The notes under the pieces: generated by a model
Database searches by the model: none
Told to the model about the DNA's origin: nothing
The model's input: only the letters and a program-made list of their open reading frames with translations
Position numbers and translations under genes: made by a program
Assembly: GCA_041497195.1 (NCBI GenBank)
Contig: JBGQGB010000002.1
Coordinates: forward strand, 44,140-108,139
Direction: 5' to 3'
DNA from: Candidatus Doudnabacteria bacterium
GTDB taxonomy: Bacteria > Patescibacteriota > Doudnabacteria > UBA920 > 2-01-FULL-46-14
DNA: 64,000 nucleotides
In this document: piece by piece, positions 8,823 through 53,840 of the stretch
Numbering within the stretch: the first letter of the stretch is position 1
Layout: the number at the start of each line of letters is the position of its first letter

Positions 8823-8897
8823 TGGCAGCCCTACAGGGAATCGAACCCTGATTTAATGGCTGAGAACCATTCGTCCTGACCATTAGACGATAGGGCC
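8823..8897 (-). tRNA. tRNA-Glu (anticodon CUC)
   Basis: Hand-folded cloverleaf. Acceptor GGCCCTA/TAGGGCT with G73 and CCA, U8, D-arm GTCT/GGAC, anticodon stem AATGG/CCATT with loop TTCTCAG, T-arm CAGGG-TTCGATT-CCCTG. Confidence 0.8.
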
Positions 8898-38504: not shown

Positions 38505-38867
38505 GTGAAAGTAGAGGATTTAAAAGTTTACAGAAAACTGTTTACACTATCTCTGAAGGTGCATACTTTGACGTTGATTTTCCCGAAGTTCGAGATTCAT
38601 GAGCTTGGCTCACAAATGCGTCGGTCGTCCAATTCAGCACCAGCAAATCTTGCCGAGGGTTTTGATAACAAACATACCAATATTTATCTGGAAAGTATTA
38701 GCCGGGCTCAGGGCGAAATAAGAGAAACTGTCCATCATTTGAATATTGCAAGTCAAAAAAATTATCTATTGGAATTGGAACTCAAAAAATTCCTTAGCGA
38801 ATATGAAGAATGCTCCAAAATGCTTTATGGCCTTGAAAAATCTTTGAATCGCAACTCCAAAAAATGA
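38505..38867 (+). CDS. Four-helix-bundle protein (23S rRNA intervening-sequence protein family), AT-rich insert between rmlD and rmlA
   Basis: MKVEDLKVYRKLF...FPKFEIHELGSQMRRSSNSAPANLAEG is the family signature. Confidence 0.7.
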   Translation: MKVEDLKVYRKLFTLSLKVHTLTLIFPKFEIHELGSQMRRSSNSAPANLAEGFDNKHTNIYLESISRAQGEIRETVHHLNIASQKNYLLELELKKFLSEYEECSKMLYGLEKSLNRNSKK

Positions 38868-39685: not shown

Positions 39686-39714
39686 TTGACAAGAGGATTT
39701 TTTTGTGCTAGACT
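39686..39714 (+). promoter_or_regulatory. Sigma70-type promoter TTGACA-N17-TAGACT upstream of the sortase-like gene
   Basis: TTGACA at 39686-39691 and TAGACT at 39709-39714. Confidence 0.5.
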
Positions 39715-39760
39715 GGAGCGTTTTAAATGATAAACTTTCGGGCCAGTATTTGTTAAAGTT

Positions 39761-41053
39761 ATGGCACTCGCTATGGCTGCAATACAGAGCAAAAAACACG
39801 TAAGAACCATTTACGAAATTATGGGCTTGTCGCCTGATGTTTTTGCAATTGCCCCGGACAAAATTGGCCAAATCGACGAGTTCCCAGTCGATTTGCCAGT
39901 ACCCAAACCAGAGCCCCTGGCCGAGAAATTTGAGGCCGAGAAGCCGCCTATCCAGAAAGAAAAGCCGGTCAATAAACTGCTCAAAAATATTCCGGTGCCG
40001 CCGCCGCCTCCGAGAGTTGGCAAAACCGCCGCAGGAGCGGCTGTAGCTCTAGAGCCAGAAATGGACCTGCCTGAGGCGGACGTCAAGGAGTTTGGTTCGC
40101 CGGCGAGCCGATTTTTGTCTCGCGATTTCGTCCGTTATCCTTTGATTTTTCTGGTGGCCCTGGGAGCATTTTACGTGATCCTCAATTTTCGCGCGTTGAG
40201 CGCGCAGGTGAGCGGCCTCCTCTCCCAGTCTGCAAAAAAGGTCACTGTCACCAGCCAGCCCGTCCCTGCTGATTTTTCCACCTGGGTGACAAAATATTAT
40301 GTCTTTACCAATGAACCGCAGATTCTCGGCCCCACCGCTGACCCGGACAATGACGGGCTCACGAACGGGCAGGAGTATTATTTGGGAACCAATCCGCTCA
40401 AATGGGACACGGACAATGACGGCTTTGGCGACGGGCAAGAAATCCTGAACGGTTACAATCCTTTGTACACGGGCAAGCTCAGCGTGTCACAGCAAAAAAT
40501 CATTGCCGACCATATCAGTCTGGATGATTTGAAATCGCGCGTGTCTCTGGAAAATTTTCAGCGCGTGTCAGGAGATCAGACCTCCGCCGCAGGCAGCGCT
40601 TTTCAAGTTGACGTGACCCGGCAGGGGCACATCAGCATCCCGAAAATCGGCGTGGATGCGCCTGTCCTCTGGAATCGGGATTTCGGCAAAGTGGAAGACG
40701 ATCTCAAATATGGCACCGTGCATCACCCCGCGACACCTTTTCCGGGCGAGCGCGGGACTGTCTCTATTCACGGCCATTCTTCGGGCAATCCGGGCGACGG
40801 GAGCTACCAAACAGTTTTCACCAAGCTCAATTTGCTCCAGGCCGGGGATGAGATTTTCGTCACAGTCTACAATGCCGCCGGCCAGCCCCGCCAGTATCTC
40901 TACGAAGTCCGCTCTGCCAAGGTCTATGCCAAAACCGATCCGGCGCAGTTTGCCGACCTGGGCGGTTTTTATTTGAATCTATCCACCAGTTGGCCGATAG
41001 GGACAGCGCTGCAACGCTACGTGGTAACCACGGAATTGGTTGGAGTGAACTAG
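39761..41053 (+). CDS. Sortase-fold protein (class E/F-like). Pro-rich N-terminal region, a TM helix, Ca-binding TSP3-like DxDxDG repeats and a catalytic domain. The TLxTC Cys position is Ser (LNLSTSWP).
   Basis: HISIPKIGVDAPV, TVSIHGHSS (His), LNLSTSWP (the TLxTC-equivalent position) and QRYVVTTELV (Arg) are colinear with S. aureus SrtA NISIAGHTF / LTLITC / KRKIFVATEV. Confidence 0.55.
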   Translation: MALAMAAIQSKKHVRTIYEIMGLSPDVFAIAPDKIGQIDEFPVDLPVPKPEPLAEKFEAEKPPIQKEKPVNKLLKNIPVPPPPPRVGKTAAGAAVALEPEMDLPEADVKEFGSPASRFLSRDFVRYPLIFLVALGAFYVILNFRALSAQVSGLLSQSAKKVTVTSQPVPADFSTWVTKYYVFTNEPQILGPTADPDNDGLTNGQEYYLGTNPLKWDTDNDGFGDGQEILNGYNPLYTGKLSVSQQKIIADHISLDDLKSRVSLENFQRVSGDQTSAAGSAFQVDVTRQGHISIPKIGVDAPVLWNRDFGKVEDDLKYGTVHHPATPFPGERGTVSIHGHSSGNPGDGSYQTVFTKLNLLQAGDEIFVTVYNAAGQPRQYLYEVRSAKVYAKTDPAQFADLGGFYLNLSTSWPIGTALQRYVVTTELVGVN

Positions 41054-41220
41054 TCTGGCCGTAGACTTATAGATAAGCCTTTATACAGGCCAAAACACGC
41101 TCAGGGATTGACTTCCCGGGCGTTTTGTGCTAATATAGGGGGTCTTTGAAAGATGGGGGAGTCACAGGAGAAAAGTTTGAAGCCCAGCAATGGGCAATTT
41201 CAAATTCTAGGGAGGAAGTC

Positions 41221-42051
41221 ATGAAGAAAATGTTCACGATTGTGTTCATGTTGTTTGTGTTTTGCGGTTTCGCTTCAGCAGTCTCGGCTCAGTCTCCTTG
41301 TGACCAACTTCGCAAGGTCACGGGCGATAAGCTGATGGCAGTCGAGGTGTCATGGGATACCTCAGTCAATCAGCCGACCAACAACGCACCATACAGCACC
41401 GCCCAGCAACAGTATGACGATGAACGGGAAACGCGCAGGCAAGCTCTGCTCGTAAGCGCTGGCTATGGTTACAGCGGCATTTACGGGGGTCCTCAGCGTC
41501 AGCGCCAGACTCCGAACAATCCGATTTATTCTGGGCAGTTGCCGACCGAAGACCTCGTCCGTACTGTTAGGGAGGAAGTGACAGGAAAGCTCCTCGCTTG
41601 TGGCGTCCGCATCGCTGATGATCCGAGGCTGGCCGCATTGCTGTTTGAAGTCTCGCTTTCAACCAAGAAAGAGATTCAGCAGCATTCGGGTTTCGACGGC
41701 CGCGGCTTGCAAGAAGGCATCTATGAAGGTGCCTTCGCTTCTATTTGGTTCTGGGGCGGCAGCTCACGCATTATCTACCCTCTGGCAATGGCGGGTGCAG
41801 CCGCGGCCGGTCAGATCGAGAGCCGCAAGGAACAGCGTGGCGTGGAGATCGTTCCGCGATTCAAACTCGTGGTGGTCGCTACCAGCGAACTCTTTGCCAG
41901 CGGCAAAGGGCGGTCCTGCTCTGTCACAACTACCGAACTTGATTCCAAGTACAAGTTCGGCAAGAATAACAGCAAGCGCGAATACCAGAATTCGGAAGCG
42001 TTTGCGCCATGTATCGGGGACAATTTGTTCCCCGGCGTCGGCGGAAATTAA
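41221..42051 (+). CDS. Secreted hypothetical protein (signal peptide)
   Basis: RBS GGGAGGAAGT, signal peptide MKKMFTIVFMLFVFCGFASAVSA. Confidence 0.5.
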   Translation: MKKMFTIVFMLFVFCGFASAVSAQSPCDQLRKVTGDKLMAVEVSWDTSVNQPTNNAPYSTAQQQYDDERETRRQALLVSAGYGYSGIYGGPQRQRQTPNNPIYSGQLPTEDLVRTVREEVTGKLLACGVRIADDPRLAALLFEVSLSTKKEIQQHSGFDGRGLQEGIYEGAFASIWFWGGSSRIIYPLAMAGAAAAGQIESRKEQRGVEIVPRFKLVVVATSELFASGKGRSCSVTTTELDSKYKFGKNNSKREYQNSEAFAPCIGDNLFPGVGGN

Positions 42052-42070
42052 GCGTTTAAGTCGTGTAGTC

Positions 42071-42112
42071 AGAGCGGAAGTACCTTTGTAGGTCTTCCGC
42101 TCTCTTTTTTTT
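42071..42112 (+). terminator. Intrinsic terminator: AGAGCGGAAG...CTTCCGCTCT 10-bp stem plus T8
   Basis: Perfect inverted repeat followed by TTTTTTTT. Confidence 0.75.
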
Positions 42113-42127
42113 GATGGAAAGCCCAAT

Positions 42128-42156
42128 CTTGACTTTTGGTCGTAAATTATGTAAGC
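42128..42156 (+). promoter_or_regulatory. Candidate promoter TTGACT-N17-TAAGCT, with a strong RBS AGGAGG before the ATG at 42231
   Basis: Seen directly. Confidence 0.4.
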
Positions 42157-42230
42157 TAGGACGTTACAGCAGTACTGGATTCATATGCAGTAAATTCCGC
42201 CGAAAGGCCAAAAAATTGTAGGAGGATGCA

Positions 42231-43271
42231 ATGCACAAAGCGTTTGCAGTTTTGGTGTTGTTCGGTTTTCTGGCTTTCGGCCAGAGTATTCAGGCCCAGC
42301 AGCCAGCGGACGGTCAGTGGCATTTTTTTGGAGAAAGCGACGACCTCAAATTTGACCCCCAAGCCAAGTTGTTTCACTGGCTTCATGTTGGCACCCGGCC
42401 GGTTATCAAAGGCGGCGTGCCGACTCGCGAAGCGTTTGCGCAATTCGTGCAAAGCGAGGCGTTCGCCAAGGCCATGACAGCCTTGGGCATCGAGAATCGC
42501 ATCGCCGAGGCACGGGACTTGGTCATTCACGACGAGTTCAGCGAGGCTCAGCTCTCACCAAACTCTTCCGCCTCTCTGTTTCTCGAGATGGCGTTTGACG
42601 GGGCCCGTGTCCAGCGGCCAGTCATTTGGTCTGGCAACGGGCCGCTCGACGTTTGGGTTTTGCGCCTTAACGGTTTGCGATTGGATATTCCCAAAGGGTG
42701 CGCGAACGTGGGCATCACCACTGACTACAAGACTCAAATCAAAACCGTCACGGTTGAGAAGCGAGTCGAAGTGCCAGTGGAAGTCCCAGTGGAGAAAATT
42801 GTCGAAAAAGTCGTTACTCCCCCGTGTGATCCCAATTGGTCCTGGGGCGTTGTGGGTGATTATTCTCCCAAGCATACCCACGCCAAGAAGGTTAAATTTT
42901 CCGATCTTCTTGAGCGGGATGACTTCTGGGTGATGGGATCCGATGACCAAGGCACTCGAGCCAAAGTCATTAACCTCATCAAACAGGAGGATGCAACTAT
43001 TCCTAAGAAAGATCGCGTTCTCGGCCAGAAAGTTCAGCTCGCGGTTGTGCTGTACAATATTTGCGACGGCAGGATGCGGATCTACTGGTACCGCGAAGGC
43101 TGGCACTGGAAGGAATTCATTCTCGGATTTGTGGCGGGATTTGCTGCCGGCTGGTTTTCCCACATGCCGGGTGTGATCTCCAAAGACCCTTTCTTGCCGC
43201 CGCCCAACTCGGGCCGGCCGGATATACTAGCCGTGCCAGGCTGGAATTGGAGCTTATTCATACCCAAATGA
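42231..43271 (+). CDS. Secreted hypothetical protein with a C-terminal TM helix
   Basis: Signal peptide MHKAFAVLVLFGFLAFGQSIQA. A hydrophobic segment FILGFVAGFAAGWF lies near the C-terminus. Confidence 0.5.
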   Translation: MHKAFAVLVLFGFLAFGQSIQAQQPADGQWHFFGESDDLKFDPQAKLFHWLHVGTRPVIKGGVPTREAFAQFVQSEAFAKAMTALGIENRIAEARDLVIHDEFSEAQLSPNSSASLFLEMAFDGARVQRPVIWSGNGPLDVWVLRLNGLRLDIPKGCANVGITTDYKTQIKTVTVEKRVEVPVEVPVEKIVEKVVTPPCDPNWSWGVVGDYSPKHTHAKKVKFSDLLERDDFWVMGSDDQGTRAKVINLIKQEDATIPKKDRVLGQKVQLAVVLYNICDGRMRIYWYREGWHWKEFILGFVAGFAAGWFSHMPGVISKDPFLPPPNSGRPDILAVPGWNWSLFIPK

Positions 43272-43383
43272 CCGGCGACAAACGCAAGCGGGCTTCACGG
43301 GCGGGAACTCTTACCAGGTTTCCGCCCATTTTTTTACCCAAAAATCTGCACTTCCTGGCCCTGTGTAAAGCTTTTGCAAGAGT

Positions 43384-43412
43384 TTGACAAGCCTAGATGT
43401 CTGTGCTAGGAT
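43384..43412 (+). promoter_or_regulatory. Candidate promoter TTGACA-N17-TAGGAT upstream of the first DUF11 gene
   Basis: Seen directly. Confidence 0.45.
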
Positions 43413-43459
43413 GAGCGGCTGTACGATAAGCTATAATTATTTTATTAAGCGAATACGAT

Positions 43460-45352
43460 ATGGCTATATTCATTCGCAAAATCAAAAGTTTGAATACAAA
43501 AAAGGCTTTGGCGGTCGTCACCTTTGCCGGCCTGATTTCGTTTTTAGTGAGTTCTCCTCTGGCTTCGGCCGACGGCCCGCAGTTTAATATTTTTCCAATT
43601 TCTTATACTGGCGAGCTCAATCACGACTTGCCGCTTTTGGACGGCCGCGACGTCACTCTGGGACAGGGATGGAGTGTTTCGCAGGCCGACCACGACAGCC
43701 GCATCAATGCCAATCCCGGAGACGTTCTCCAATTTTCAGTTTATTACCACAACGGCATGCCGGATGCGGATAGCAACGTGGCGCTCAACGCCGTGGTCCA
43801 GGCTTTTGTGTCTCCCTCTTTGGGCAGCACGGCCAATACTTTTTCAGTTTCCGCCACGATAGGCGCGCAGAATGCCGCCACTGTTTCCAGTGCGGACGCC
43901 AGCCGCGGCGGCAATATCGCCATCCATGTTTCGGGTACGCAGGCGCAGAGTCTCAGTCTGGTGCCGGGCAGTGTCACGTGGTTTCCGCTGCAGGGCTCGA
44001 CCCCACCCGGAACAGCGCAAACCCTTCCTGATACTATTTTCAGCAGCGGCGTTAGCATCGGCAATATCCGCGGGTGTTTCCAATACCACGGGTTTGTGAA
44101 CTTCAAAGTGCAGCTGACGCAGGTCCAACAGGGGAGTCTGCTGATTCAGAAAAATGTGCGCAACCTCAGTCAGGGATTGGGGGCGCTGGCGCCATTTGAT
44201 CCCAATCAGGTCAGTGCCAATCCGGGCGACACCGTGGAGTATCAGATTTTGGTCTCGGCCCAGAACAATGCCGTCCAGAGCGTGTCGGTCAAAGACGCGC
44301 TCGATCCGAAACTGACCCTCACCGGCAGTGTCACCCTCGACGGCAGTCCGATTGATACGCTCGGTTTTTTCAATTCCGGCGATAATATCGGCACGGTGAA
44401 CGTAGGCTCCAATCGTGAAATCAAATTCAAAGCAGTTGTCGCCGCGAAATCGCAATTCACTGTCGGTACGTTTATTCTGTCAAATACGGCGTATACTTTC
44501 AGCTCCAACTCGTCCGCGCAAGATAGCGCCAACGTTCAGGTGGTCATCCAGCCGCAGCAAATTGCCTGCACTTTTACGTGGGATGCGCCGCTGACGACCG
44601 ACGGCACCCAGCGCGGCTCGCGTCACGTGGGCGACCAATTTAACGTGCAGCAACAAGTGACCGGTCTGAATCCGAGCCAGTCGTTTAATATTGATTTTCA
44701 GCACGTTTCCGGTTCACCTGTTTTCAAGTCGCTGCAGAGCGCCGATGCCTCGGGCAATTTCAATCGCAAAGAAACCAGCACGATATCCGCCAGTTATACT
44801 CCCGGCGACTACCTCGCTTTCATCGAGCTGAATGGAGTAAATGTCGCGTCTTGCACGGGCATGCGCGTGGAGCTCCCGTCAGTTCAGCAAATCAGCCTGA
44901 CTAAATTGGTGCGCGACGACAACGCCGGCGGAGCTTTCACTACCCAAGTCAGTGCGCAGCCGTCGGACCTGGTCAGTTTCCAGCTGACGATCAATCCCCA
45001 GAGCAGCAACACGACTTTGCAAAACGTCACAATAAAGGATACCTTGCCGGCCAAACTCACTTTCAACACCGGCACCCTGAATGTCAACGGCACCCCCCAG
45101 TCAGTGGGGAACTTTTTCACCACCGGGCTCAATCTCGGAACTGTCCAGCCGAATCAGCAAATCGTGGTGACCTTCCAGACGACTGTGGCAAATGCCACCA
45201 ATTTCACGGCCGGGAGTTGTGAAATTTTGACAAACTTTTCCACCGTGACTGCCGATGGAGGCTTGTCCTCTTCGTCTTCGGCCAATGTCCAGGTTTGCAA
45301 GCAGGCGCCTGTGAAACAGCCGGGCCAGCCCGCGCCGCGACCTCTACAATAA
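43460..45352 (+). CDS. Large secreted DUF11 (conserved-repeat-domain) surface protein, with no C-terminal anchor
   Basis: Signal peptide. DUF11-type segments (ANPGDTVEYQILVSAQNNAVQSVSVKDALDPKLTLTGSVTLDG). Confidence 0.6.
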   Translation: MAIFIRKIKSLNTKKALAVVTFAGLISFLVSSPLASADGPQFNIFPISYTGELNHDLPLLDGRDVTLGQGWSVSQADHDSRINANPGDVLQFSVYYHNGMPDADSNVALNAVVQAFVSPSLGSTANTFSVSATIGAQNAATVSSADASRGGNIAIHVSGTQAQSLSLVPGSVTWFPLQGSTPPGTAQTLPDTIFSSGVSIGNIRGCFQYHGFVNFKVQLTQVQQGSLLIQKNVRNLSQGLGALAPFDPNQVSANPGDTVEYQILVSAQNNAVQSVSVKDALDPKLTLTGSVTLDGSPIDTLGFFNSGDNIGTVNVGSNREIKFKAVVAAKSQFTVGTFILSNTAYTFSSNSSAQDSANVQVVIQPQQIACTFTWDAPLTTDGTQRGSRHVGDQFNVQQQVTGLNPSQSFNIDFQHVSGSPVFKSLQSADASGNFNRKETSTISASYTPGDYLAFIELNGVNVASCTGMRVELPSVQQISLTKLVRDDNAGGAFTTQVSAQPSDLVSFQLTINPQSSNTTLQNVTIKDTLPAKLTFNTGTLNVNGTPQSVGNFFTTGLNLGTVQPNQQIVVTFQTTVANATNFTAGSCEILTNFSTVTADGGLSSSSSANVQVCKQAPVKQPGQPAPRPLQ

Positions 45353-45373
45353 CCCCTTGATTTTAGGAGCAAT

Positions 45374-46957
45374 ATGATCAGAACAGGACCTGTCATAAAA
45401 CTCAAAACTTTTTTATTGGCGACCCCAGTGGTGGTCGTCGGGCTTTTGGGCTTGGTCCCCGTGGCGCAGGCGGCCCCGGCTTTCAACGCTTTCCCGATCA
45501 GCTATACGCCGCAAACCAATATGGATTTGCCCATGATCGACGCCCGCAACGTCACCCAGAGCGGATCTTTCAGTACTTCCCAAGCTGACCATGATTCGGG
45601 CGTTTCCGCCAATCCCGGAGACGTCATCGAATTTGAAATTTACTATCACAACGCCGCCGTGGCCGAGGATGCCGCCACCAATGTCCTCATCAAGGCCTCC
45701 CTGCCCGGCGGGACCAGGCAGTCGCACGAGGCTTCCGCCACTATCAGTTCGGACCAGACGGCGACAGTCAGTAGCACTGACGCCTTCCGTGGCGGCAATA
45801 TTTTCATCAATATCAACGGCTCAGCGCAGACCCTGACCTTCATGCCCGGCTCGGTGCAATGGTTTCCCCAGCGATCTTCGACCGCCAGCTCTTTGTCCAA
45901 CTCGGACAATCTCCTGGGGAGCGGGGTCAATATCGGCACAGTCCAGGGTTGTTTCAATTTTTCCGGGTTTCTCACTTTTCAGGCGCAGGTGGGCAATCAA
46001 ACTACTACCACCACAACTCAAAATCAGAATTTGTCCATTTCCAAACAGGTTTTGAACGTGACTCGCGGGGACAACAATTACAACCAGTCCACCACAGCCA
46101 ATCCCGGCGATCGAGTCAGATTTCGCGTCTCTTTCAATACTTCCGGCACTGGTTCGCAGACCAATGTGATTGTCCGGGATATCTTGCCGCCGCAGTTGAG
46201 CTATGTCTCAGGCACTCTGCAGCTGGACGGGTCAGCGGTCTCCAATCAATTTGATTTTTTTGGCGCTGGCCTGAACCTCGGCACGCAATTTGCGGGGAAT
46301 TCCCATACCCTGATTTTTGACGCCAACGTGGCCCAGGGGCAGGCTTTCAGCGGGAGTTCTTCTTTAATAAACACTGCCAACGTCCGCAGCGACCAGGTCT
46401 TCACTCATCAGGATCAGGTCACTGTTTCGGTGCAACAGGTGCAGGGAGTGGCGCAATCCAGCCTCCGTAAAACCGCTTTCAACGTGACCCAGGGAGTCGA
46501 CGCCACTATCCGGCCCGCCAACCCGGGCGACATCATCGCCTATTCTTTGTACTTTAAAAATACCGGCCAAACTGCCATCAGTGGGGCCGTTATCCAGGAT
46601 GATATTTCTGACGTGGAGCAGCTCTCGCAGGTCGTGGATCAGGGGGGTGCCACTTCATTGAACGGGTCCATTGTCTATGCCCCGGTTGACGTGCCGGCGG
46701 GCGTGGAAGTCAGCCGGACTTTTCAGGTCAAAGTAATGGCTGCCAATCTAATCCCGAGCAATTCCGATTTGGTCATGGATAATGTTTATGGCAACGAAGT
46801 GCGCATTTTGGTGAACCGGCCCCAGGTCCGCGGCGCCACCGTGCCGCCTCGCACGGGGCCTAACGAATGGTTCCCGGTGGTGCTTGCGTCTTTGGCGACA
46901 GCAGGATATGCTGTGCGTAGGAAGTTGAAATCCCGCGTAGCTGCGATCGCGAAGTAA
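45374..46957 (+). CDS. Secreted DUF11 surface protein, paralog of 43460..45352, with a C-terminal sorting-signal-like tail (VPPRTG, a hydrophobic stretch, then RRKLKSR)
   Basis: Shared N-terminal module (FPISYT...SQADHDS...ANPGDV...YYHN). DUF11-type segments. Tail at 46841-46954. Confidence 0.6.
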   Translation: MIRTGPVIKLKTFLLATPVVVVGLLGLVPVAQAAPAFNAFPISYTPQTNMDLPMIDARNVTQSGSFSTSQADHDSGVSANPGDVIEFEIYYHNAAVAEDAATNVLIKASLPGGTRQSHEASATISSDQTATVSSTDAFRGGNIFININGSAQTLTFMPGSVQWFPQRSSTASSLSNSDNLLGSGVNIGTVQGCFNFSGFLTFQAQVGNQTTTTTTQNQNLSISKQVLNVTRGDNNYNQSTTANPGDRVRFRVSFNTSGTGSQTNVIVRDILPPQLSYVSGTLQLDGSAVSNQFDFFGAGLNLGTQFAGNSHTLIFDANVAQGQAFSGSSSLINTANVRSDQVFTHQDQVTVSVQQVQGVAQSSLRKTAFNVTQGVDATIRPANPGDIIAYSLYFKNTGQTAISGAVIQDDISDVEQLSQVVDQGGATSLNGSIVYAPVDVPAGVEVSRTFQVKVMAANLIPSNSDLVMDNVYGNEVRILVNRPQVRGATVPPRTGPNEWFPVVLASLATAGYAVRRKLKSRVAAIAK

Positions 46958-49151: not shown

Positions 49152-49904
49152 ATGGCTCGAAACATAAAATTATCAGTAGTGGTGCCAGCGTACAACGAGG
49201 GGAAGCGGATTGCGCAGACTTTGGAGGATATTGACCGCTACCTGGAGAGGCAAGGTTACGACTACGAGATTATTGTCGTCGATAACGGCAGTAAGGATAA
49301 TACCTGTGACGTCGTCAAAGAATATCAGGCCAAGGGCGTCAAAAACGTGGTCAGATTGTGTTTGTCCCAGAGTGTGGGCGCCAAAGGCAGTGCGGTCCGT
49401 CTCGGCATCGTGGATTATGCTCTGGGTGAGTACATCATGTTTATGGACGCGGACAATGCCACCCCGATTTCCGAGATAGAAAAATTCTGGCCGTATCTGG
49501 AGAATGGCCAATATCAGGTCGTCATCGGCTCCCGCTACGTGGCAGAGTCGGATGTGACCAAAAAACAGCCCCTTTACCGGATCGTCCTGAGCCGCCTGAG
49601 CAATATGCTCATCCAGCTTCTGGCGGTGCCGGGGATCAAAGACACCCAGCTCGGATTCAAGGCGTTTAGCCACGATGCGGCCAAAGACATTTTTGCCGCG
49701 GTGACAGTGCAGGGCTGGGGGTTTGACATGGAGGTTTTGACCATTGCCAAAACCCGCGGGTATAGAATCAAAGAAGTGGGCGTGCTCTGGCACGAGAGCG
49801 GCGGCAGCCACGTGCCCCTGACTGCGTATCTGCAAAGTTTGCGGGACCTCTTGAAAATTAAACTCAATTCCCTGGCGGGAAGATACGCAAAAAAAAGCAG
49901 ATGA
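49152..49904 (+). CDS. GT2 glycosyltransferase (Dpm1/GtrB-like polyprenyl-phosphate sugar transferase)
   Basis: LSVVVPAYNEGKRI and the DxD motif FMDADN. Confidence 0.75.
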   Translation: MARNIKLSVVVPAYNEGKRIAQTLEDIDRYLERQGYDYEIIVVDNGSKDNTCDVVKEYQAKGVKNVVRLCLSQSVGAKGSAVRLGIVDYALGEYIMFMDADNATPISEIEKFWPYLENGQYQVVIGSRYVAESDVTKKQPLYRIVLSRLSNMLIQLLAVPGIKDTQLGFKAFSHDAAKDIFAAVTVQGWGFDMEVLTIAKTRGYRIKEVGVLWHESGGSHVPLTAYLQSLRDLLKIKLNSLAGRYAKKSR

Positions 49905-51940
49905 AAAAATTCCTCACCACTTTCCTAATACTGGTGGTATTCTCTGGCTATTTTCCAGGGGCTACAAACTTTTCTCAGCCGGGAGTTTTAATAGTCAGGC
50001 TCCGTGCCGGCACGCCGCCGTCTTTTCTCGCACCTTTTTCCCATACTCAGGATCAACTGTTTGACAATGTCTACCGGCTCAGTGTGGCGGACACGGCGCG
50101 GGCTTTGCAGTCGCTGCGAGCTGACACGCACGTCGTTTACGCCGAGACCGACGGAGCAGTGAAAACCACAGTCAACGCGGCCGACCCTTTGTTTGTGTTG
50201 GATACCCAAGCTTTGTCCAAGCAGTGGTATTTGCCGAAGATTCTCGTTCATCAAGCTTGGCAGCAGACCGTGGGCATCGGGATTACCATTGCTGTAGTTG
50301 ATACCGGCATTGACGGCAAACACGAGGACCTAAGCGACGGCCGCGTCATCGGCGGCTATGCCAGCTATTGCCAAGCCATGAGCCAGTCGGTACCCAATGA
50401 TTGTTTGATCAAAGTGAACGGCGAACTCGCCCCCGGCGTCAACTCTGACGACAACGGTCACGGCACCATTGTGGCCGGTCTCATCGGCGCGATTGCCAAT
50501 AACAACAAAGGCATTGCCGGGATTGACTGGAATGTCAAACTGATGCCGATCAAAGCGCTGGATGCGAGCGGCTCCGGCCTCGCTTCGGACGTAGCCACCG
50601 GCATCAAGTGGGCTGCTGATCACGGGGCCAAGATTATCAATATGTCAGTGGGCGGGCAGGGCCTCGACGGCCTGCAAGTGTTGCAGGATGCCATCACTTA
50701 TGCCTACAACAAGGGCGTGCTGATCGTGGCGGCGGCCGGCAACGACGCAGCTGAGAATGGGGCGGATCTCAACAACAGTCCCGTACTGCCTGTATGCGCG
50801 GACGGGGGGCGGAATATGGTCATTGGCGTGGCCGCCGTGGACGTAGCGGATCAAAAAGCCAAGTTTTCCAACTACGGCTCCAACTGCATCGATATCTCGG
50901 CGCCCGGCACCGGCAATTTTATTGACAAGGAACACAAGCAGGGCGTTGTTTCGACGTATTATGATCCGACCAAACCGGGCGAGCAGGACCTCTACGTTTA
51001 CGCGGCTGGTACTTCGGTCTCGGCTCCGATCATTAGCGGGGTGGCGGGCCTGATGATGTCCGCCTTTCCGGACCTGGATGCGAACGCGATCCGCACCCGA
51101 CTCTTAAGCTCCGTTGATAACATTGATTTGCAAAATCAGTCCGGTTGCGGCAGCGGCAGTTGCGTGGGGCAGCTCGGCAGCGGCCGCATCAATGCGCTCA
51201 AAGCCGTGACTTTGGCCACCACTTTCAATTCCGGCTCTCTTGTTCGCGATCCGCAGGGAAACATATTTTTAATTGAACAGGGCCTGAAGCGGCCGGTGTC
51301 GTCGTACGTGCTGGCGCAGCGGTTTGCGGGTGTGGCAGTGGTCGCGGCTTCAGCCAACCAGCTCGACAGTTTTCCCATCGGCTCCGCCCTGCCGCCCACA
51401 GACGGCGGCATAGTGAAGGACCAGAGCAATCCGACTGTGTATTTGATCGACGCTGGCCAGCGGCGCGCCATGTCATACATCGCTTTCATTTCCCGCGGTT
51501 TGCACTTCGAAAACATCACTATTTTGACCTCGCCAGAAATCACTTCATACCCTCAGGGCGCAGACGCTGCCGTGGTCAACGGCGCGCTTCTCAAGTCTGC
51601 TGATTCGCCGGCAGTGTACATTTTGAACAGCAATACCCGCGAGCTCCTTTCGTATTTTGTGTTCAAGCAGCGGAATTTCCGAAATCAAGTCATCGGCGTG
51701 TTGCCCCTGGACCAGCTGGGCCAATACCCTTTGGATCCGAACGGATTTTTGTATCCGCCTCTGGACGGGACCCTGATCCGCGGCGATAGTGTGGCGACCG
51801 TGTATGTGATTCAGGGTAGTACGCGCCACGGCCTCTCGCTGCAGGCATTTCAGAGTCACAATTACCGGTTTGCGGACGTCAATGTCCTGCCGCAAAGCGA
51901 AGTGAGCGGCTATCAAGCTGGCCCTGATATTTTGAACTAA
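49901..51940 (+). CDS. Secreted subtilisin-like (S8) serine protease with four C-terminal ~55-aa tandem repeats
   Basis: Asp in VVDTGID, His in HGTIVAGLIG, Ser in GTSVSAPIISG. Signal peptide. Repeats of the form VYLIDAGQRRAMSY... Confidence 0.8.
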   Translation: MKKFLTTFLILVVFSGYFPGATNFSQPGVLIVRLRAGTPPSFLAPFSHTQDQLFDNVYRLSVADTARALQSLRADTHVVYAETDGAVKTTVNAADPLFVLDTQALSKQWYLPKILVHQAWQQTVGIGITIAVVDTGIDGKHEDLSDGRVIGGYASYCQAMSQSVPNDCLIKVNGELAPGVNSDDNGHGTIVAGLIGAIANNNKGIAGIDWNVKLMPIKALDASGSGLASDVATGIKWAADHGAKIINMSVGGQGLDGLQVLQDAITYAYNKGVLIVAAAGNDAAENGADLNNSPVLPVCADGGRNMVIGVAAVDVADQKAKFSNYGSNCIDISAPGTGNFIDKEHKQGVVSTYYDPTKPGEQDLYVYAAGTSVSAPIISGVAGLMMSAFPDLDANAIRTRLLSSVDNIDLQNQSGCGSGSCVGQLGSGRINALKAVTLATTFNSGSLVRDPQGNIFLIEQGLKRPVSSYVLAQRFAGVAVVAASANQLDSFPIGSALPPTDGGIVKDQSNPTVYLIDAGQRRAMSYIAFISRGLHFENITILTSPEITSYPQGADAAVVNGALLKSADSPAVYILNSNTRELLSYFVFKQRNFRNQVIGVLPLDQLGQYPLDPNGFLYPPLDGTLIRGDSVATVYVIQGSTRHGLSLQAFQSHNYRFADVNVLPQSEVSGYQAGPDILN

Positions 51941-51944
51941 TAAT

Positions 51945-53840
51945 ATGCGCGGCATCAAAACAAAAACTTTTGCTATTTTTTTGATTGGCCTTTTTCTATC
52001 CCAGCCTTTAGTGGCAGCTGCGGATGATGTTTTCAATCCCAGTCTGCTTATTGCGGACGAGCGGTTTTCTGATATCGGCACGCTCGGTGGGCCGGAAGGT
52101 ATCCAGAAATTCCTGGAAAGCAAAGGCAGTGTGCTCGGCAATACTTCTGCGGCGTTTTTGCAGAAATTACGCGAGCCCGGGGACCAGACGCTCAAAAGCC
52201 GTTTGCCAGACCCGCGCCCCAATCTCGGGCGGCTGCGCACTGCGGCTGAGCTCATCTATGACGCATCGACCTCGGCGGGTCTCAATCCCCAGGTCGTGCT
52301 CGTGACTTTGGAAAAAGAGCAGACCCTGATCGACGGCACCTTCAGCACGGATCAGAGTTTGCAGCGCGCCCTGGATCACGGATTGGGCTTTGGCTGCCCG
52401 GATGAGGGCGGCTGCAGCGACGTGTTCCTGGGGTTTTATTTCCAGCTCTTTGGCAATTTTGACTCGGGCGGCAACCGCTATATCGGCATGCCCATGTCCT
52501 TGATCCGCAGTTTCAACTACGAAGTCGGCGGCATCAGGGTGGGCCGCGGTCCGCTGGTGGATGCGAGTAATACCACTTTTGGCGGCGTACGGGTGCGCAC
52601 TGCCATAAAAGGCGACACTATCACCCTGGACAATACCCAAGGCCCTCCCAACAATGCCCAGCCCACGCAGGTGGTCACTCTGACCAATTTCGCCACTACA
52701 GCCCTCTATCGCTACACACCGCACGTGTATAATGGCAATTATAACTTTTACAAATTTTTCTCAGCCTGGTTCAAATATCCGGATGGGACTCTCATCCAAA
52801 CTTCCGGAGACCCGAGGATTTATGTGATTGACAGTGGCTTGCGCCGTCAGATTTCCCAGCTCGTTATCTCCCAGCGCGGGCTCAATCCCGCTAGTGTCAT
52901 CGCTTTGTCGAGTCTGGAATTTGCCGGCTTTTCCCTCGGTGATGTGATGGTGCCAAAAGAGGGGACAATACTCAAAAACTCAGCCGGCAAATATTATCTG
53001 ATAGAAAACCAGACTCGCAAACTCCTCTCTACCTTTGTGGCGACTCAGCGCAAGCTCAATCTCGCTACAGCTGTAGCAGTGCCTGATGACGAGCTCACTT
53101 CATACAAAGGCGGCGGGGTGGCTCTGCCCGCAGAAGGGACTCTGGTCAAATCCAGTGACAACCCCGCTGTCTATGTCATCACCAACAACCAAAAACGTCT
53201 GCTCTCTGCCTTTGTTTTCAAGCAGCGCAGTTATAAATTCGCTGATGTTTTGGCTGCTGCTCCGGGCGAGCTGGACTCATACCCGAGTGGCTCGGTGATG
53301 CCGCCTCTGGATGGCACACTGGTCAAGGCGAGTGAAGAGGCAGCAGTCTACTATGTCGGCAACGGGCAGCTGCAGCCCATGACGTTTTTCTCATTTACGC
53401 AAAACGGGTTCAAGTTCAAAGACGTCATAGCAGTGCCAAAAGCCGAGCTCATCGCCTGGCAAGTGGGCAAGCCCTTGCCGCCTCCCACTGGCCTGCTGGT
53501 CAAATCGCCGACAAGCCCTGGAGTGTACTATCTGGAGTCAGGCACCCGACGGCCAGTCTCATACGTGGTCTTTGTGTCGCGGCGGTTCGATTTCAAAAAA
53601 GTGATAGTGGCAGCTGACAGCGATATCGCGGCCATCGAGCTGGGGACACCTCTCGATCTGCCAAATTTGGCGCTGGTGAAAACTGCGGATAGTGGGACAG
53701 TGTATTATCTGGTGGATGGCACGCTGCGGCCGCTGACGCTGACTGCTTTCAAAAATCGCAGGCTTCTATTCAGCGACGTGGTGACCCTCAGTCCTGAGGA
53801 TTTCGCCAAATATCCCGTAGGAGCAGTGGTGCAGAATTGA
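51945..53840 (+). CDS. Secreted protein with an unknown N-terminal domain and six ~55-aa tandem repeats of the type found in the adjacent S8 protease
   Basis: Signal peptide. Repeat consensus DGTLVKxSDxPAVYxIxNGxKRxLxSxxVFxxRxFKFxDVxxVxxxELxxYPxG. Confidence 0.6.
   Translation: MRGIKTKTFAIFLIGLFLSQPLVAAADDVFNPSLLIADERFSDIGTLGGPEGIQKFLESKGSVLGNTSAAFLQKLREPGDQTLKSRLPDPRPNLGRLRTAAELIYDASTSAGLNPQVVLVTLEKEQTLIDGTFSTDQSLQRALDHGLGFGCPDEGGCSDVFLGFYFQLFGNFDSGGNRYIGMPMSLIRSFNYEVGGIRVGRGPLVDASNTTFGGVRVRTAIKGDTITLDNTQGPPNNAQPTQVVTLTNFATTALYRYTPHVYNGNYNFYKFFSAWFKYPDGTLIQTSGDPRIYVIDSGLRRQISQLVISQRGLNPASVIALSSLEFAGFSLGDVMVPKEGTILKNSAGKYYLIENQTRKLLSTFVATQRKLNLATAVAVPDDELTSYKGGGVALPAEGTLVKSSDNPAVYVITNNQKRLLSAFVFKQRSYKFADVLAAAPGELDSYPSGSVMPPLDGTLVKASEEAAVYYVGNGQLQPMTFFSFTQNGFKFKDVIAVPKAELIAWQVGKPLPPPTGLLVKSPTSPGVYYLESGTRRPVSYVVFVSRRFDFKKVIVAADSDIAAIELGTPLDLPNLALVKTADSGTVYYLVDGTLRPLTLTAFKNRRLLFSDVVTLSPEDFAKYPVGAVVQN

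Follow-up and report, generated by a model that had tools for sequence, protein, structure and literature searches.

Gene cluster and fold of the sortase-like protein

The window analysed here is a stretch of 64,000 nucleotides from an uncultivated, ultra-small CPR bacterium which is Doudnabacteria-like, and all of the features described below are located on its forward strand. The cluster consists of five open reading frames (ORFs), each of which is present where the first-pass annotation had placed it. The first ORF (39761..41053) encodes a sortase-like protein of 430 aa, identified from the ORF list and by Pfam, NCBIfam, phmmer, AlphaFold2 and Foldseek. Next to it is the ORF of a secreted protein (41146..42051). 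Translation probably begins at the ATG at 41221, which yields MKKMFTIVFMLF... with a signal peptide; the gene call for this ORF in an independent assembly is 276 aa in length. The third ORF (42231..43271) encodes a signal-peptide protein with a C-terminal hydrophobic helix and a proline-rich end, and orthologues of it are present at loci L001 and L003. Searches of Pfam and NCBIfam found no family for either of these two proteins, in agreement with their earlier description as secreted proteins of unknown function.

The last two ORFs encode surface proteins with DUF11 domains, a family which is now named CLIPPER (PMC12617251). The first of them (43460..45352; 630 aa) has a signal peptide and matches Pfam PF01345 and NCBIfam TIGR04226, an isopeptide-forming fimbrial domain (E=5.5e-13). 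It ends in ...KQPGQPAPRPLQ (C-terminal ...PAPRPLQ) with no TM segment, and its orthologues in L001, L003 and L006 are likewise tail-less. The second (45374..46957; 527 aa) is the candidate sortase substrate. A promoter-like site (TTGACA, a 17-nt spacer, TAGACT and an extended TG) lies upstream of the sortase-like gene at 39686..39714, but because it comes from a consensus scan alone, it is no evidence of function. The same kind of consensus scan marked a promoter-like site before the secreted-protein ORF (41108..41136), a terminator-like hairpin of 11 pairs followed by a T-run (43299..43327) and another promoter-like site after this hairpin (43384..43412).

The 430-aa protein begins with a proline-rich, disordered region (aa 1-120) which is probably cytoplasmic. 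Arg-rich residues precede a single predicted TM helix (aa 122-141), and a stalk of helical segments and calcium-binding thrombospondin type-3 (TSP3) repeats (aa 143-270) leads to the sortase catalytic domain (aa 289-430). Two bacterial TSP3 (DxDxDG) repeats are located at aa 193-237 (40337..40471; Pfam PF18884, E=2.4e-09), and residues D194, D196 and D198 are invariant across our alignment A1, which comprises 68 sequences, 52 of them Ser-clade members. The predicted topology is therefore that of an N-terminal membrane anchor with an extracytoplasmic C-terminal catalytic domain. The proline-rich N-terminus, membrane anchor and TSP3-like repeats proposed in the first-pass annotation are all seen in the Pfam match and the AlphaFold2 model.

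The Pfam Sortase profile (PF04203) matches residues 291-427 over its full length (model positions 1-125 of 125; E=2.8e-17) with a score of 63.1 bits, the curated cut-off being 26.6. Residues 280-430 of the AlphaFold2 model have pLDDT values above 90, and the top 50 PDB matches of this model in Foldseek are all sortases (probability 1.0, ~2.5 Å rmsd, ~145 columns), the best of them being sortases C, E, A and D. The full-length profile match and the structural matches bear out the sortase fold suggested earlier. The predicted eight-stranded β-barrel, by which the protein can be placed in the sortase superfamily with high confidence, is that of the class A-F sortases (MEROPS C60; SrtA, class C pilus, D and E enzymes). 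However, no sortase class can be assigned to the protein, because every NCBIfam class profile scores below its cut-off: SrtD is the best with 48.7 bits (cut-off 140), followed by class D with 43.7 (165), class C with 31.2 (160), class E with 28.5 (160) and class F with 24.0 (166). The score for TIGR01076 is 34.1, with a cut-off of 39.35. No other sortase-like ORF is present in the window; beyond it, the search for a second, Cys-bearing sortase covered one match per genome in a scan of reference genomes with patterns specific to this subfamily.

Further similarities with the class A-F sortases include a His at the end of β4, the nucleophile position at the end of β7 in a TLxT-x motif and an Arg on β8, as well as an N-terminal anchor and substrates with a pentapeptide, a hydrophobic stretch and a basic tail. 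In contrast to these enzymes, the 430-aa protein has Ser in place of Cys, a TSP3 stalk and a cytoplasmic extension of ~120 aa, and the motif of its clade is PPRTG and not LPXTG, LAXTG or the like.

Serine at the nucleophile position

The codon at 40988..40990 is AGT and encodes Ser410 at the position of the nucleophilic Cys (C184 in SrtA), on which phmmer, hhalign and the family alignments agree. In the phmmer alignment with a solved class C sortase, LNLSTSWP pairs with LTLVTCTP, while hhalign against S. aureus SrtA pairs S410 with C184 and H339 with H120. This catalytic His belongs to the stretch His337-Gly338-His339 (40769..40777), located in the family alignment and by hhalign. For the catalytic Arg419 (41015..41017) we relied on its place in the family alignment and on the analogy with R197 of SrtA, since the hhalign match with SrtA ends at residue 411. 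The His/Ser/Arg set named in the first-pass annotation is thus confirmed, at the level of sequence alignment, in the sortase motif positions. The entire 430-aa protein contains no Cys, which rules out a Cys elsewhere in the protein as the nucleophile. With respect to MEROPS C60, Ser410 is present where the family has its catalytic Cys (TLxTC, end of β7), and the catalytic His and Arg are present as H339 and R419 in 68/68 sequences of A1 and in both of the Ser lineages described below.

Ser occupies the nucleophile position in ~70 homologues of 43-65% identity, which have LNLSTSWP in common with 11 further loci, and it is found in 52/52 clade members of A1 and in 11/11 of the further Ser-clade loci. 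The residue is always Ser and never Ala, Gly or Thr. Ser codons at the clade loci are AGC (10), AGT (1) and TCT (1); the TCT lineage is nested within the Ser clade, and synonymous differences are found throughout the flanking codons, which shows that the amino acid Ser is under selection. Since amino-acid identities of 45-70% go with saturated synonymous sites, selection was gauged here by codon-family usage and column conservation. His339, Ser340, Ser341, Thr409, Trp411, Pro412, Gly414 and Arg419 are invariant in the Ser and Cys clades alike. In 115 Cys representatives, 19 positions reach a conservation of 90% or more, and of these the nucleophile is the only one swapped outright (0% Cys) in the Ser lineages; 14 stay at or above 90% in each Ser lineage and four others fall to 69-86%. 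The positions kept include the GHSS motif with His339, Thr409, Pro412 and Arg419, and as far as alignments can tell, no decay of the active site is visible in the Ser lineages.

A change from TGT to AGT needs one base only, and Ser410 could on this ground be taken for a sequencing or assembly error, or for a mutation that recently inactivated the gene in just one genome; nothing else supports such an origin. An identical 430-aa protein is present in independent assemblies (JGI 3300052992, Logan SRR35962460 and NCBI), the ORF is intact and its catalytic domain is highly conserved (mean column conservation 0.72). Fixation of Ser in the ~70 homologues excludes a read error, and its presence at the 11 further loci is equally at odds with a one-off mutation. 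Sequencing error or one-off mutation as the origin of Ser is thereby refuted, we give an artefact or decaying pseudogene practically no weight, and the codon, which the first-pass annotation had wished to see checked in raw reads, is genuine.

Doudnabacteria and other CPR bacteria also possess Cys-bearing sortases of the 'T-C-W-P' type (e.g. P0071, locus L006), which have the same architecture as the 430-aa protein, namely a long N-terminus, TM helix, TSP3 repeats and catalytic domain. These sortases are 42-49% identical to the 430-aa protein in the catalytic domain and carry the GHSS, LNLST-x-WP and Arg motifs of the Ser clade. However, their residue 410 is Cys, residue 337 is Ser, Ala or Thr, and residue 335 is Tyr or, less frequently, Ile or Val; the substrates encoded beside them terminate in (A/S)PK(T/S)G or APATG, whereas those of the Ser clade have PPRTG. 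Ser and Cys forms occur in a common neighbourhood of rml genes, sortase, unknown ORFs, tail-less CLIPPER, tail-bearing CLIPPER and epimerase, which indicates that the system stayed intact across the switch from Cys to Ser. With the nucleophile column masked, the Ser clade of the window is monophyletic in 100/100 bootstraps. By these comparisons, Ser is a clade-wide trait derived from Cys-bearing relatives of the same gene neighbourhood.

A second lineage is formed by short sortases (~200 aa) of Doudnabacteria and Patescibacteria (e.g. OGE84107.1, P0201), with Ser in 120/120 top matches. They keep the Ser nucleophile, GHSS, Thr, Pro and Arg, and share the phylum, and in at least one case the genome, with the 430-aa type. 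Unlike the latter, they consist of a TM helix and the catalytic domain only, have the motifs YIFGHSS and LTLQTSYP with no His at 337, and are located in a housekeeping context (uvrA, sortase, hrcA-grpE-dnaK-dnaJ) with no substrate gene adjacent. The two Ser groups cluster together in 0/100 bootstraps when the nucleophile column is masked; Ser, as judged from these trees, arose independently in the second lineage. In one Doudnabacteria genome (A3C85_00970, A3C85_01755), both of the sortase homologues found are of the Ser form.

Beside the catalytic His, the changes Y335S and S/A337H track the nucleophile change perfectly in 77 loci. His337 is specific to the Ser clade of the window, and the second Ser lineage has Phe at this position. 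According to hhalign, residue 337 corresponds to A118 of SrtA, which lines the Leu-Pro binding groove (PMC3019223), and His337 may therefore be only a reflection of specificity for the PPRTG substrate. The second Ser lineage lacks this His, which is thus no compensating change of a general kind, and a Ser-His-His triad as a general catalytic compensation is unsupported. Position 416 is Ala in 85% and 86% of the two Ser groups and in 9% of the Cys relatives, which is a lead but not significant given the ~146 columns scanned; no other convergent substitution common to both Ser lineages stood out among these columns.

The CLIPPER protein and its sorting signal

The 527-aa protein, as delineated by Pfam, NCBIfam, the orthologue alignment and the model, has a signal peptide, three β-sandwich domains, a flexible linker, a sorting signal and a TM helix. 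It matches PF01345 in three stretches (E=4e-14) and TIGR01451 with E=3.3e-21. Residues K224/D269/N333 and K366/D409/N470 are nearly invariant among 32 sequences, the reference for this Lys/Asp/Asn order being the triad K715/D748/N806 of a solved CLIPPER domain, and it is probable from this conservation that the domains carry intramolecular isopeptide bonds.

The sorting signal (46844..46954), recognized by orthologue conservation and pLDDT, consists of P491-P-R-T494-G495 followed by PNEW, FPVVLASLATAGYAV and the basic tail RRKLKSR.... The putative scissile bond between T494 and G495 is encoded at 46853-46858. PPRTG is present in 27/29 orthologues and RTG in 29/29, and the linker preceding it is variable; in the model, the motif sits in a low-pLDDT linker just ahead of a helix (residues 499-526). 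The sorting-signal-like tail described in the first-pass annotation therefore stands in its motif, hydrophobic stretch and RRKLKSR, but the hydrophobic stretch is ~15-17 residues long and not ~20. Conservation of the motif also speaks against a plain TM anchor. A protein encoded near the sortase-like gene thus carries the pentapeptide, hydrophobic stretch and basic tail of a cognate substrate.

The PPRTG signal is found at 6 independent Ser-clade loci, and by enzyme clade the sorting motif goes from LPxTG to (A/S)PK(T/S)G and then to PPRTG, the first two being carried by neighbours of Cys-clade enzymes. Of the two CLIPPER proteins, the second alone carries a sorting signal, and a class C multi-pilin sortase pilus locus is therefore unsupported; a non-exhaustive search identified no YPKN-like pilin motif. 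A 2026 preprint on a 'novel pilus system in CPR' does not explain the locus, since the Pam pili that it describes assemble by donor-strand exchange and have no relation to sortases or CLIPPER.

Catalytic and non-catalytic readings of the serine form

[quoted passage not shown] They are defined as cysteine transpeptidases in reviews and recent structural papers (PMC8225981, PMC13178298). A dramatic loss of activity has been reported for the C184S mutant of S. aureus SrtA (PMC4827206), which serves as a 'cys-less' background (PMC5578623). The replacement and its position are identical to those of Ser410. However, C184S is a laboratory point mutant in a Cys-adapted site, whereas the natural Ser form is conserved across a clade and has co-evolved groove changes. 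We looked in the literature for natural sortases that are Cys-less or have Ser as nucleophile and came across none; a natural, clade-wide Ser form of sortase is not described in the literature searched. Databases label the Ser-type proteins 'sortase', 'sortase A' or 'LPXTG-site transpeptidase', and such generic labels hide the difference between Ser and Cys. Folds can switch nucleophile in evolution, as the Ser/Cys pairs among PA-clan proteases illustrate, and penicillin-binding D,D-transpeptidases use a Ser acyl-enzyme while L,D-transpeptidases use cysteine. Since these folds are unrelated to that of sortases, they provide an analogy of mechanism only.

We propose, with a probability of roughly 0.5, that the 430-aa protein is a working, membrane-anchored Ser410/His339/Arg419 sortase dedicated to the 527-aa CLIPPER protein four genes downstream. 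After secretion of the substrate by the Sec pathway, its C-terminal helix and basic tail would keep it membrane-bound, and PPRTG in the flexible linker would be bound by the sortase-like enzyme. His339 would activate Ser410 for an attack on the Thr494-Gly495 bond, giving an acyl-O-ester intermediate. An amine acceptor, either a cell-wall precursor or a partner protein, would resolve this ester and leave the adhesin covalently attached. The parts of this proposal that we infer are the catalytic role of Ser, the site of cleavage and the acceptor. Conservation in the alignments favours a catalytically constrained active site in the Ser clade. However, any third residue, acidic or His, that would complete a classical Ser triad is putative, which counts against catalysis, as does the loss of activity in SrtA C184S. 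Taken across the phylum, we see an even chance that CPR bacteria of the Doudnabacteria type switched the sortase nucleophile from Cys to Ser at least twice independently while the enzyme kept working, as a Ser/His/Arg serine sortase with its own PPRTG signal, and that the Ser forms may be the sole sortases in some genomes.

Loss of catalysis would make the protein a pseudo-sortase, that is, a non-catalytic PPRTG binder acting as a docking, chaperone or retention factor, with the CLIPPER protein staying anchored by its helix. Cys to Ser is a typical 'dead enzyme' substitution and SrtA C184S is nearly inactive; the binding-related residues (His, Arg and groove) and the motif would stay conserved in such a binder too, and the extra non-catalytic modules (TSP3 repeats and long cytoplasmic N-terminus) suit scaffolding. 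What makes this unlikely in our judgement is that the general base His339 and the other catalytic or family-invariant residues are kept in two independent Ser lineages, and that the nucleophile position is held specifically as Ser across the AGY and TCN codon families. Moreover, in the genome with A3C85_00970 and A3C85_01755, loss of catalysis would leave conserved T-G signals with no identified processing enzyme, both homologues found there being Ser forms.

It is also conceivable, but in our view improbable, that Ser410 and His339 are catalytic and that it is mainly water that resolves the O-acyl intermediate. A serine peptidase of this kind would not transpeptidate the CLIPPER protein but cut it from its membrane anchor, so that it could be released or assembled non-covalently. 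It is known from thiolsubtilisin and subtiligase that hydrolysis is favoured over aminolysis in oxy-esters as compared with thio-esters, and a change from Cys to Ser should therefore shift the outcome towards hydrolysis. The 630-aa CLIPPER protein and other proteins of the cluster have no membrane tail and must be held by other means, which would suit such release. However, the Ser acyl-enzymes of penicillin-binding proteins are known to transpeptidate efficiently, and the partner proteins are the same for the Cys relatives that occupy this neighbourhood, which means that the context gives no sign of a changed outcome.

A natural, clade-wide and twice-evolved Ser form which has kept its substrate signal would make the nucleophile requirement of the sortase fold directly testable. 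If active, the Ser sortase would reveal how the active site compensates for the loss of Cys, and it could possibly serve in protein engineering as a thiol-free, oxidation-insensitive ligase with an orthogonal PPRTG motif. Surface structures of CPR bacteria mediate their episymbiotic lifestyle, and a Ser sortase would bear on how adhesins are attached to the envelope in these uncultivated organisms.

Serine at the nucleophile position of a sortase fold

The 430-aa product of window positions 39761–41053 is a member of the sortase superfamily by both homology and fold. All five same-strand ORFs that the first-pass annotation had proposed for this cluster are present where it had placed them. Pfam comparison of the protein reveals the Sortase family PF04203 over residues 291–427, covering the entire model (E=2.8e-17; 63 bits, gathering score 26.6), together with two bacterial thrombospondin type-3 repeats. 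The NCBIfam models for class D, C, E and F sortases are also matched, all far under their cut-offs, and as the protein lies under every class-specific threshold of NCBIfam, no class is assigned to it. The AlphaFold2 model, computed with 68 sequences, has a pLDDT above 90 over residues 280–430 and shows one TM helix (residues 122–141). His339 is predicted directly after strand 332–337, Ser410 at the end of strand 403–411 and Arg419 within strand 418–429. A Foldseek search of the PDB gives only sortases among the best 50 matches, of classes C, E, A and D, with a probability of 1.0 and ~2.5 Å rmsd over ~145 columns.

The presence of Ser in the nucleophile column, which had been claimed from the sequence alone, is confirmed by Pfam, phmmer, profile alignment, the codon and the fold prediction. 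In the phmmer comparison with PDB chains, the query stretch 'fylnlstswpigtalqryvvttel' falls on 'dlltlvtctplgintHRilltger' of the class C sortase 8t28, and Ser410 on the nucleophile Cys. Profile-profile alignment with S. aureus SrtA pairs S-I-H337-G-H339 with S-I-A118-G-H120 and L-S408-T-S410 with L-I182-T-C184. Codon 40988–40990 is AGT. Inspection of the full sequence finds no cysteine anywhere in the 430 residues, and the catalytic Cys that defines the cysteine-transpeptidase family is absent. The protein combines a sortase fold with an exact positional replacement of Cys by Ser.

The N-terminal extension is long, probably cytoplasmic, mostly disordered and variable. Its opening stretch is conserved (consensus KTIxELLG; VRTIYEIMGLSPD in this protein, residues ~11–30, window 39761–39860) and is predicted to form a short helix. 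The motif is a hint that this supposedly extracellular enzyme may have a partner to interact with in the cytoplasm.

Conservation of the serine in two lineages

The exact 430-aa protein recurs in independent JGI, Logan and NCBI assemblies. Sequencing error as the source of the Ser is ruled out by these assemblies together with the Ser found across homologues, and we consider an artefact extremely improbable. A search of 5.8 billion proteins returned ~70 homologues at 43–65% identity. They come from Candidatus Doudnabacteria, Ryanbacteria and unnamed CPR MAGs; each reads LNLSTSWP, and nearly every one lacks Cys. The next tier of homologous proteins (P0071–P0087) reads LNLSTCWP or LTLTTCWP. In a 68-sequence alignment, H339, S340, S341, T409, W411, P412, G414 and R419 are invariant, and position 410 is Ser in 52 sequences (Ser clade) and Cys in 16 (Cys clade). 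Two positions switch together with 410, such that the Ser clade has S335-I-H337-G-H and the Cys clade Y335-I-(S/A/T)337-G-H.

When one genome of each GTDB species was scanned with patterns specific to this subfamily, 77 further loci showed its motif; Cys is encoded at 65 of them (by TGC or TGT) and Ser in 12 entries. Cys sortases of other classes may occur elsewhere in these genomes, including the one from which the 64-kb window comes. The latter comprise 11 loci from public collections (two pairs being the same gene) and the window itself. Every Ser410 at these loci is accompanied by His337, and every Cys410 by Ser or Ala at that position. Ser is encoded by AGC at 10 loci, by AGT in the window and by TCT at one locus (L008), which is nested in the Ser clade with 70% catalytic-domain identity to the window protein. 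The peptide LNLSTSWP stays constant in the Ser clade while the flanking codons differ synonymously throughout. A change of TGC to AGC is a single transversion. Passing between AGY and TCN needs more than one step, via Cys or Thr; for serines in active sites, this reasoning is classically called the 'two serines' argument. Our codon and alignment comparisons indicate that Ser itself is under selection at position 410.

The catalytic domain was also searched exhaustively with HMMER against 1.84 billion cluster representatives. Among the best 150 matches, which were classified, 107 have Cys, 7 belong to the window Ser clade and 22–23 come from another group of short (~200 aa) proteins with the motif YIFGHSS...LTLQTSYP(I/V)GTA.KR. 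Ser is present in all 120 best homologues of one such protein from Doudnabacteria (P0201, OGE84107.1), and this second lineage has Phe at 337. Neighbour-joining trees (~146 columns) place the two Ser groups in separate regions of the family, each amid Cys lineages. With the nucleophile column masked, the window clade is monophyletic in 100/100 bootstraps and the Ser groups are joined in 0/100. A second, independent Ser lineage exists, as judged from these trees. Both kinds occur in one Doudnabacteria genome (A3C85_00970, P0042; A3C85_01755, P0275). The short Ser family in Patescibacteria includes P0201, P0275 and about 120 relatives (loci L087–L089), and the two members examined lie beside housekeeping genes, the Doudnabacteria one between uvrA and hrcA-grpE-dnaK-dnaJ.

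A further comparison covered the 19 positions whose conservation among 115 Cys representatives is 90% or higher. Of these, the nucleophile alone is fully substituted in the Ser lineages (0% Cys); 14 of the 19 stay at or above 90% in each Ser lineage, and four others drop only to 69–86%. His339, GHSS, Thr409, Pro412 and Arg419 are all retained, which indicates that His, Arg and the other family-invariant residues have been fully kept in two independent lineages. Residue 416 (nt 41006–41008), in the β7–β8 loop three residues ahead of the catalytic Arg, is Ala in ~85% of both Ser lineages against 9% of the Cys relatives, where T, S, N or D takes its place. This may be a convergent change, statistically insecure given the number of columns scanned.

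Gene neighbourhood and the candidate substrate

The cluster lies among envelope and glycan genes of the window. A PDZ protease, Lgt and RmlB-, RmlD- and RmlA-like genes precede it, and after it come an epimerase, an aldo-keto reductase, GT2s, an S8 peptidase, a Wzx-like flippase and a Wzy_C protein. A recurring order of rml genes, sortase, one to three unknown secreted proteins, a tail-less ~630-aa CLIPPER (DUF11) protein, a tail-bearing ~520-aa CLIPPER protein and epimerase is present in Ser-clade loci L001, L003 and L004 and in Cys-clade locus L006. Because this order is common to Ser and Cys loci, the switch from Cys to Ser lies inside an intact, conserved system.

Several further features of the region were recorded. 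A gene for a PF05635 '23S rRNA intervening sequence protein' (four-helix bundle) lies at 38505–38867 between the RmlD- and RmlA-like genes, and the family is found at a similar place in L003. Downstream, an S8 subtilase (679 aa, 49901–51940), which may be part of the same surface-protein module, is followed by a 631-aa protein without family match (51945–53840); L004 has the same S8 gene after a GT2 gene. GC rises from ~0.46–0.47 at 36–40 kb (sugar-nucleotide genes) to ~0.53–0.55 at 40–48 kb (sortase and CLIPPER genes), for which amino-acid composition or a different origin are both possible. The sole tRNA of the window is tRNA-Glu(CTC) (8823–8897, minus strand). MAGs that are clearly Doudnabacteria-like by sortase, gene order and CLIPPER genes often bear, as TPA assemblies, the title 'uncultured Candidatus Saccharibacteria bacterium' (L007–L009, L021, L023 and others), and a few are named as Acidobacteriaceae, Binatia, Verrucomicrobiia or Bdellovibrionales; mislabelling or contamination of the bins is likely.

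The last protein of the cluster (527 aa, 45374–46957) is the candidate substrate. In its model (pLDDT 86), a signal peptide is followed by three beta-sandwich domains, PPRTG lies in a disordered linker (486–495), and a helix spans 499–526. Among the nearest solved folds are adhesins and pilins that Gram-positive bacteria anchor by LPXTG, namely PrgB, the antigen I/II C-domains and BcpA. The solved example of DUF11, renamed CLIPPER, is a CnaA-like domain with an intramolecular isopeptide bond involving K715, N806 and D748 (PMC12617251). As K224/D269/N333 and K366/D409/N470 are both nearly invariant in the family of the 527-aa protein, we infer that it would contain two such bonds.

The stretch carrying the candidate sorting signal reads RGATVPPRTGPNEW. 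A (P/T)PRTG(P/A)xxW motif, helix and basic tail occur at six independent Ser-clade loci. Among 29 orthologues at 39–63% identity, 27 have PPRTG, one APRTG and one PARTG; RTG is invariant in all 29 and the linker ahead of it is variable. The sorting-signal-like tail of the earlier annotation has thereby held, a plain TM anchor without conserved motif being ruled out. Neighbour proteins in Cys-clade Doudnabacteria end in (A/S)P(K/x)(T/S)G, and canonical LPxTG tails adjoin more distant Cys relatives. These comparisons point to an intact candidate substrate next to the enzyme, with a pentapeptide that differs between the enzyme clades.

A short C-terminus rich in Pro and Gly, ...PG.P..RP(x0-4), recurs among the cluster proteins that have no membrane tail. 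This ending is found in the ~630-aa CLIPPER protein (43460–45352, C-terminus ...KQPGQPAPRPLQ) and in unknown secreted proteins, including that of 42231–43271, at L001, L003, L005, L006, L007, L012, L016, L028, L048, L049 and L055. It is present in 16/305 ORFs just downstream of the sortase gene versus 2/929 elsewhere in the same loci, matches no sorting tag familiar to us and may serve as a second element for recognition or retention. Directly after the signal peptide, the two CLIPPER proteins are predicted to have mature N-termini (residues ~36–50) that are near-identical in the window and the L001, L003 and L006 orthologues, with (G/A)(P/V)xFN(I/A/T)FPISYT. A free N-terminus conserved in this way may be a strand that binds a partner, or might even act as amine acceptor in the transfer reaction.

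Possible activity of the serine enzyme

We put the probability that the window protein is an active serine transpeptidase at roughly one half. In such an enzyme, Ser410, activated by His339, would attack the Thr494–Gly495 bond of the candidate substrate to give an O-acyl enzyme, which an amine acceptor would then resolve. It has been reported that Ala118 and Ile182 of SrtA line the Leu-Pro binding groove (PMC3019223). Since His337 and Ser408 align with these positions, the coupled changes Y335S and S337H could tune specificity for Pro-Pro, aid catalysis, or both. His337 is no universal requirement, as the second Ser lineage has Phe there.

The main counter-evidence is that engineered SrtA C184S is reported to be dramatically less active (PMC4827206), and because of this result two rivals are live. 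A non-catalytic pseudo-sortase which only binds the sorting signal would fit the weak activity of that mutant, and we regard it as a possible but distinctly less probable reading than the active transpeptidase. From thiolsubtilisin and subtiligase chemistry, hydrolysis of an ester intermediate could dominate, which would make the protein a Ser release peptidase; this appears unlikely, more so than the pseudo-sortase.

Closest to the window protein are Cys-bearing CPR sortases, uncharacterised so far, which share its gene neighbourhood. Enrichment of sortases in CPR has been described, in a study where the nucleophile goes unmentioned (PMC6744442), and source databases label the Ser proteins plain 'sortase', 'sortase A' or 'LPXTG-site transpeptidase'. 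Searches of 8 million full texts turned up no naturally occurring sortase described as having Ser or lacking Cys. A natural Ser sortase would surprise specialists, and whether the sortase fold can run on serine is a question directly testable by peptide assay.
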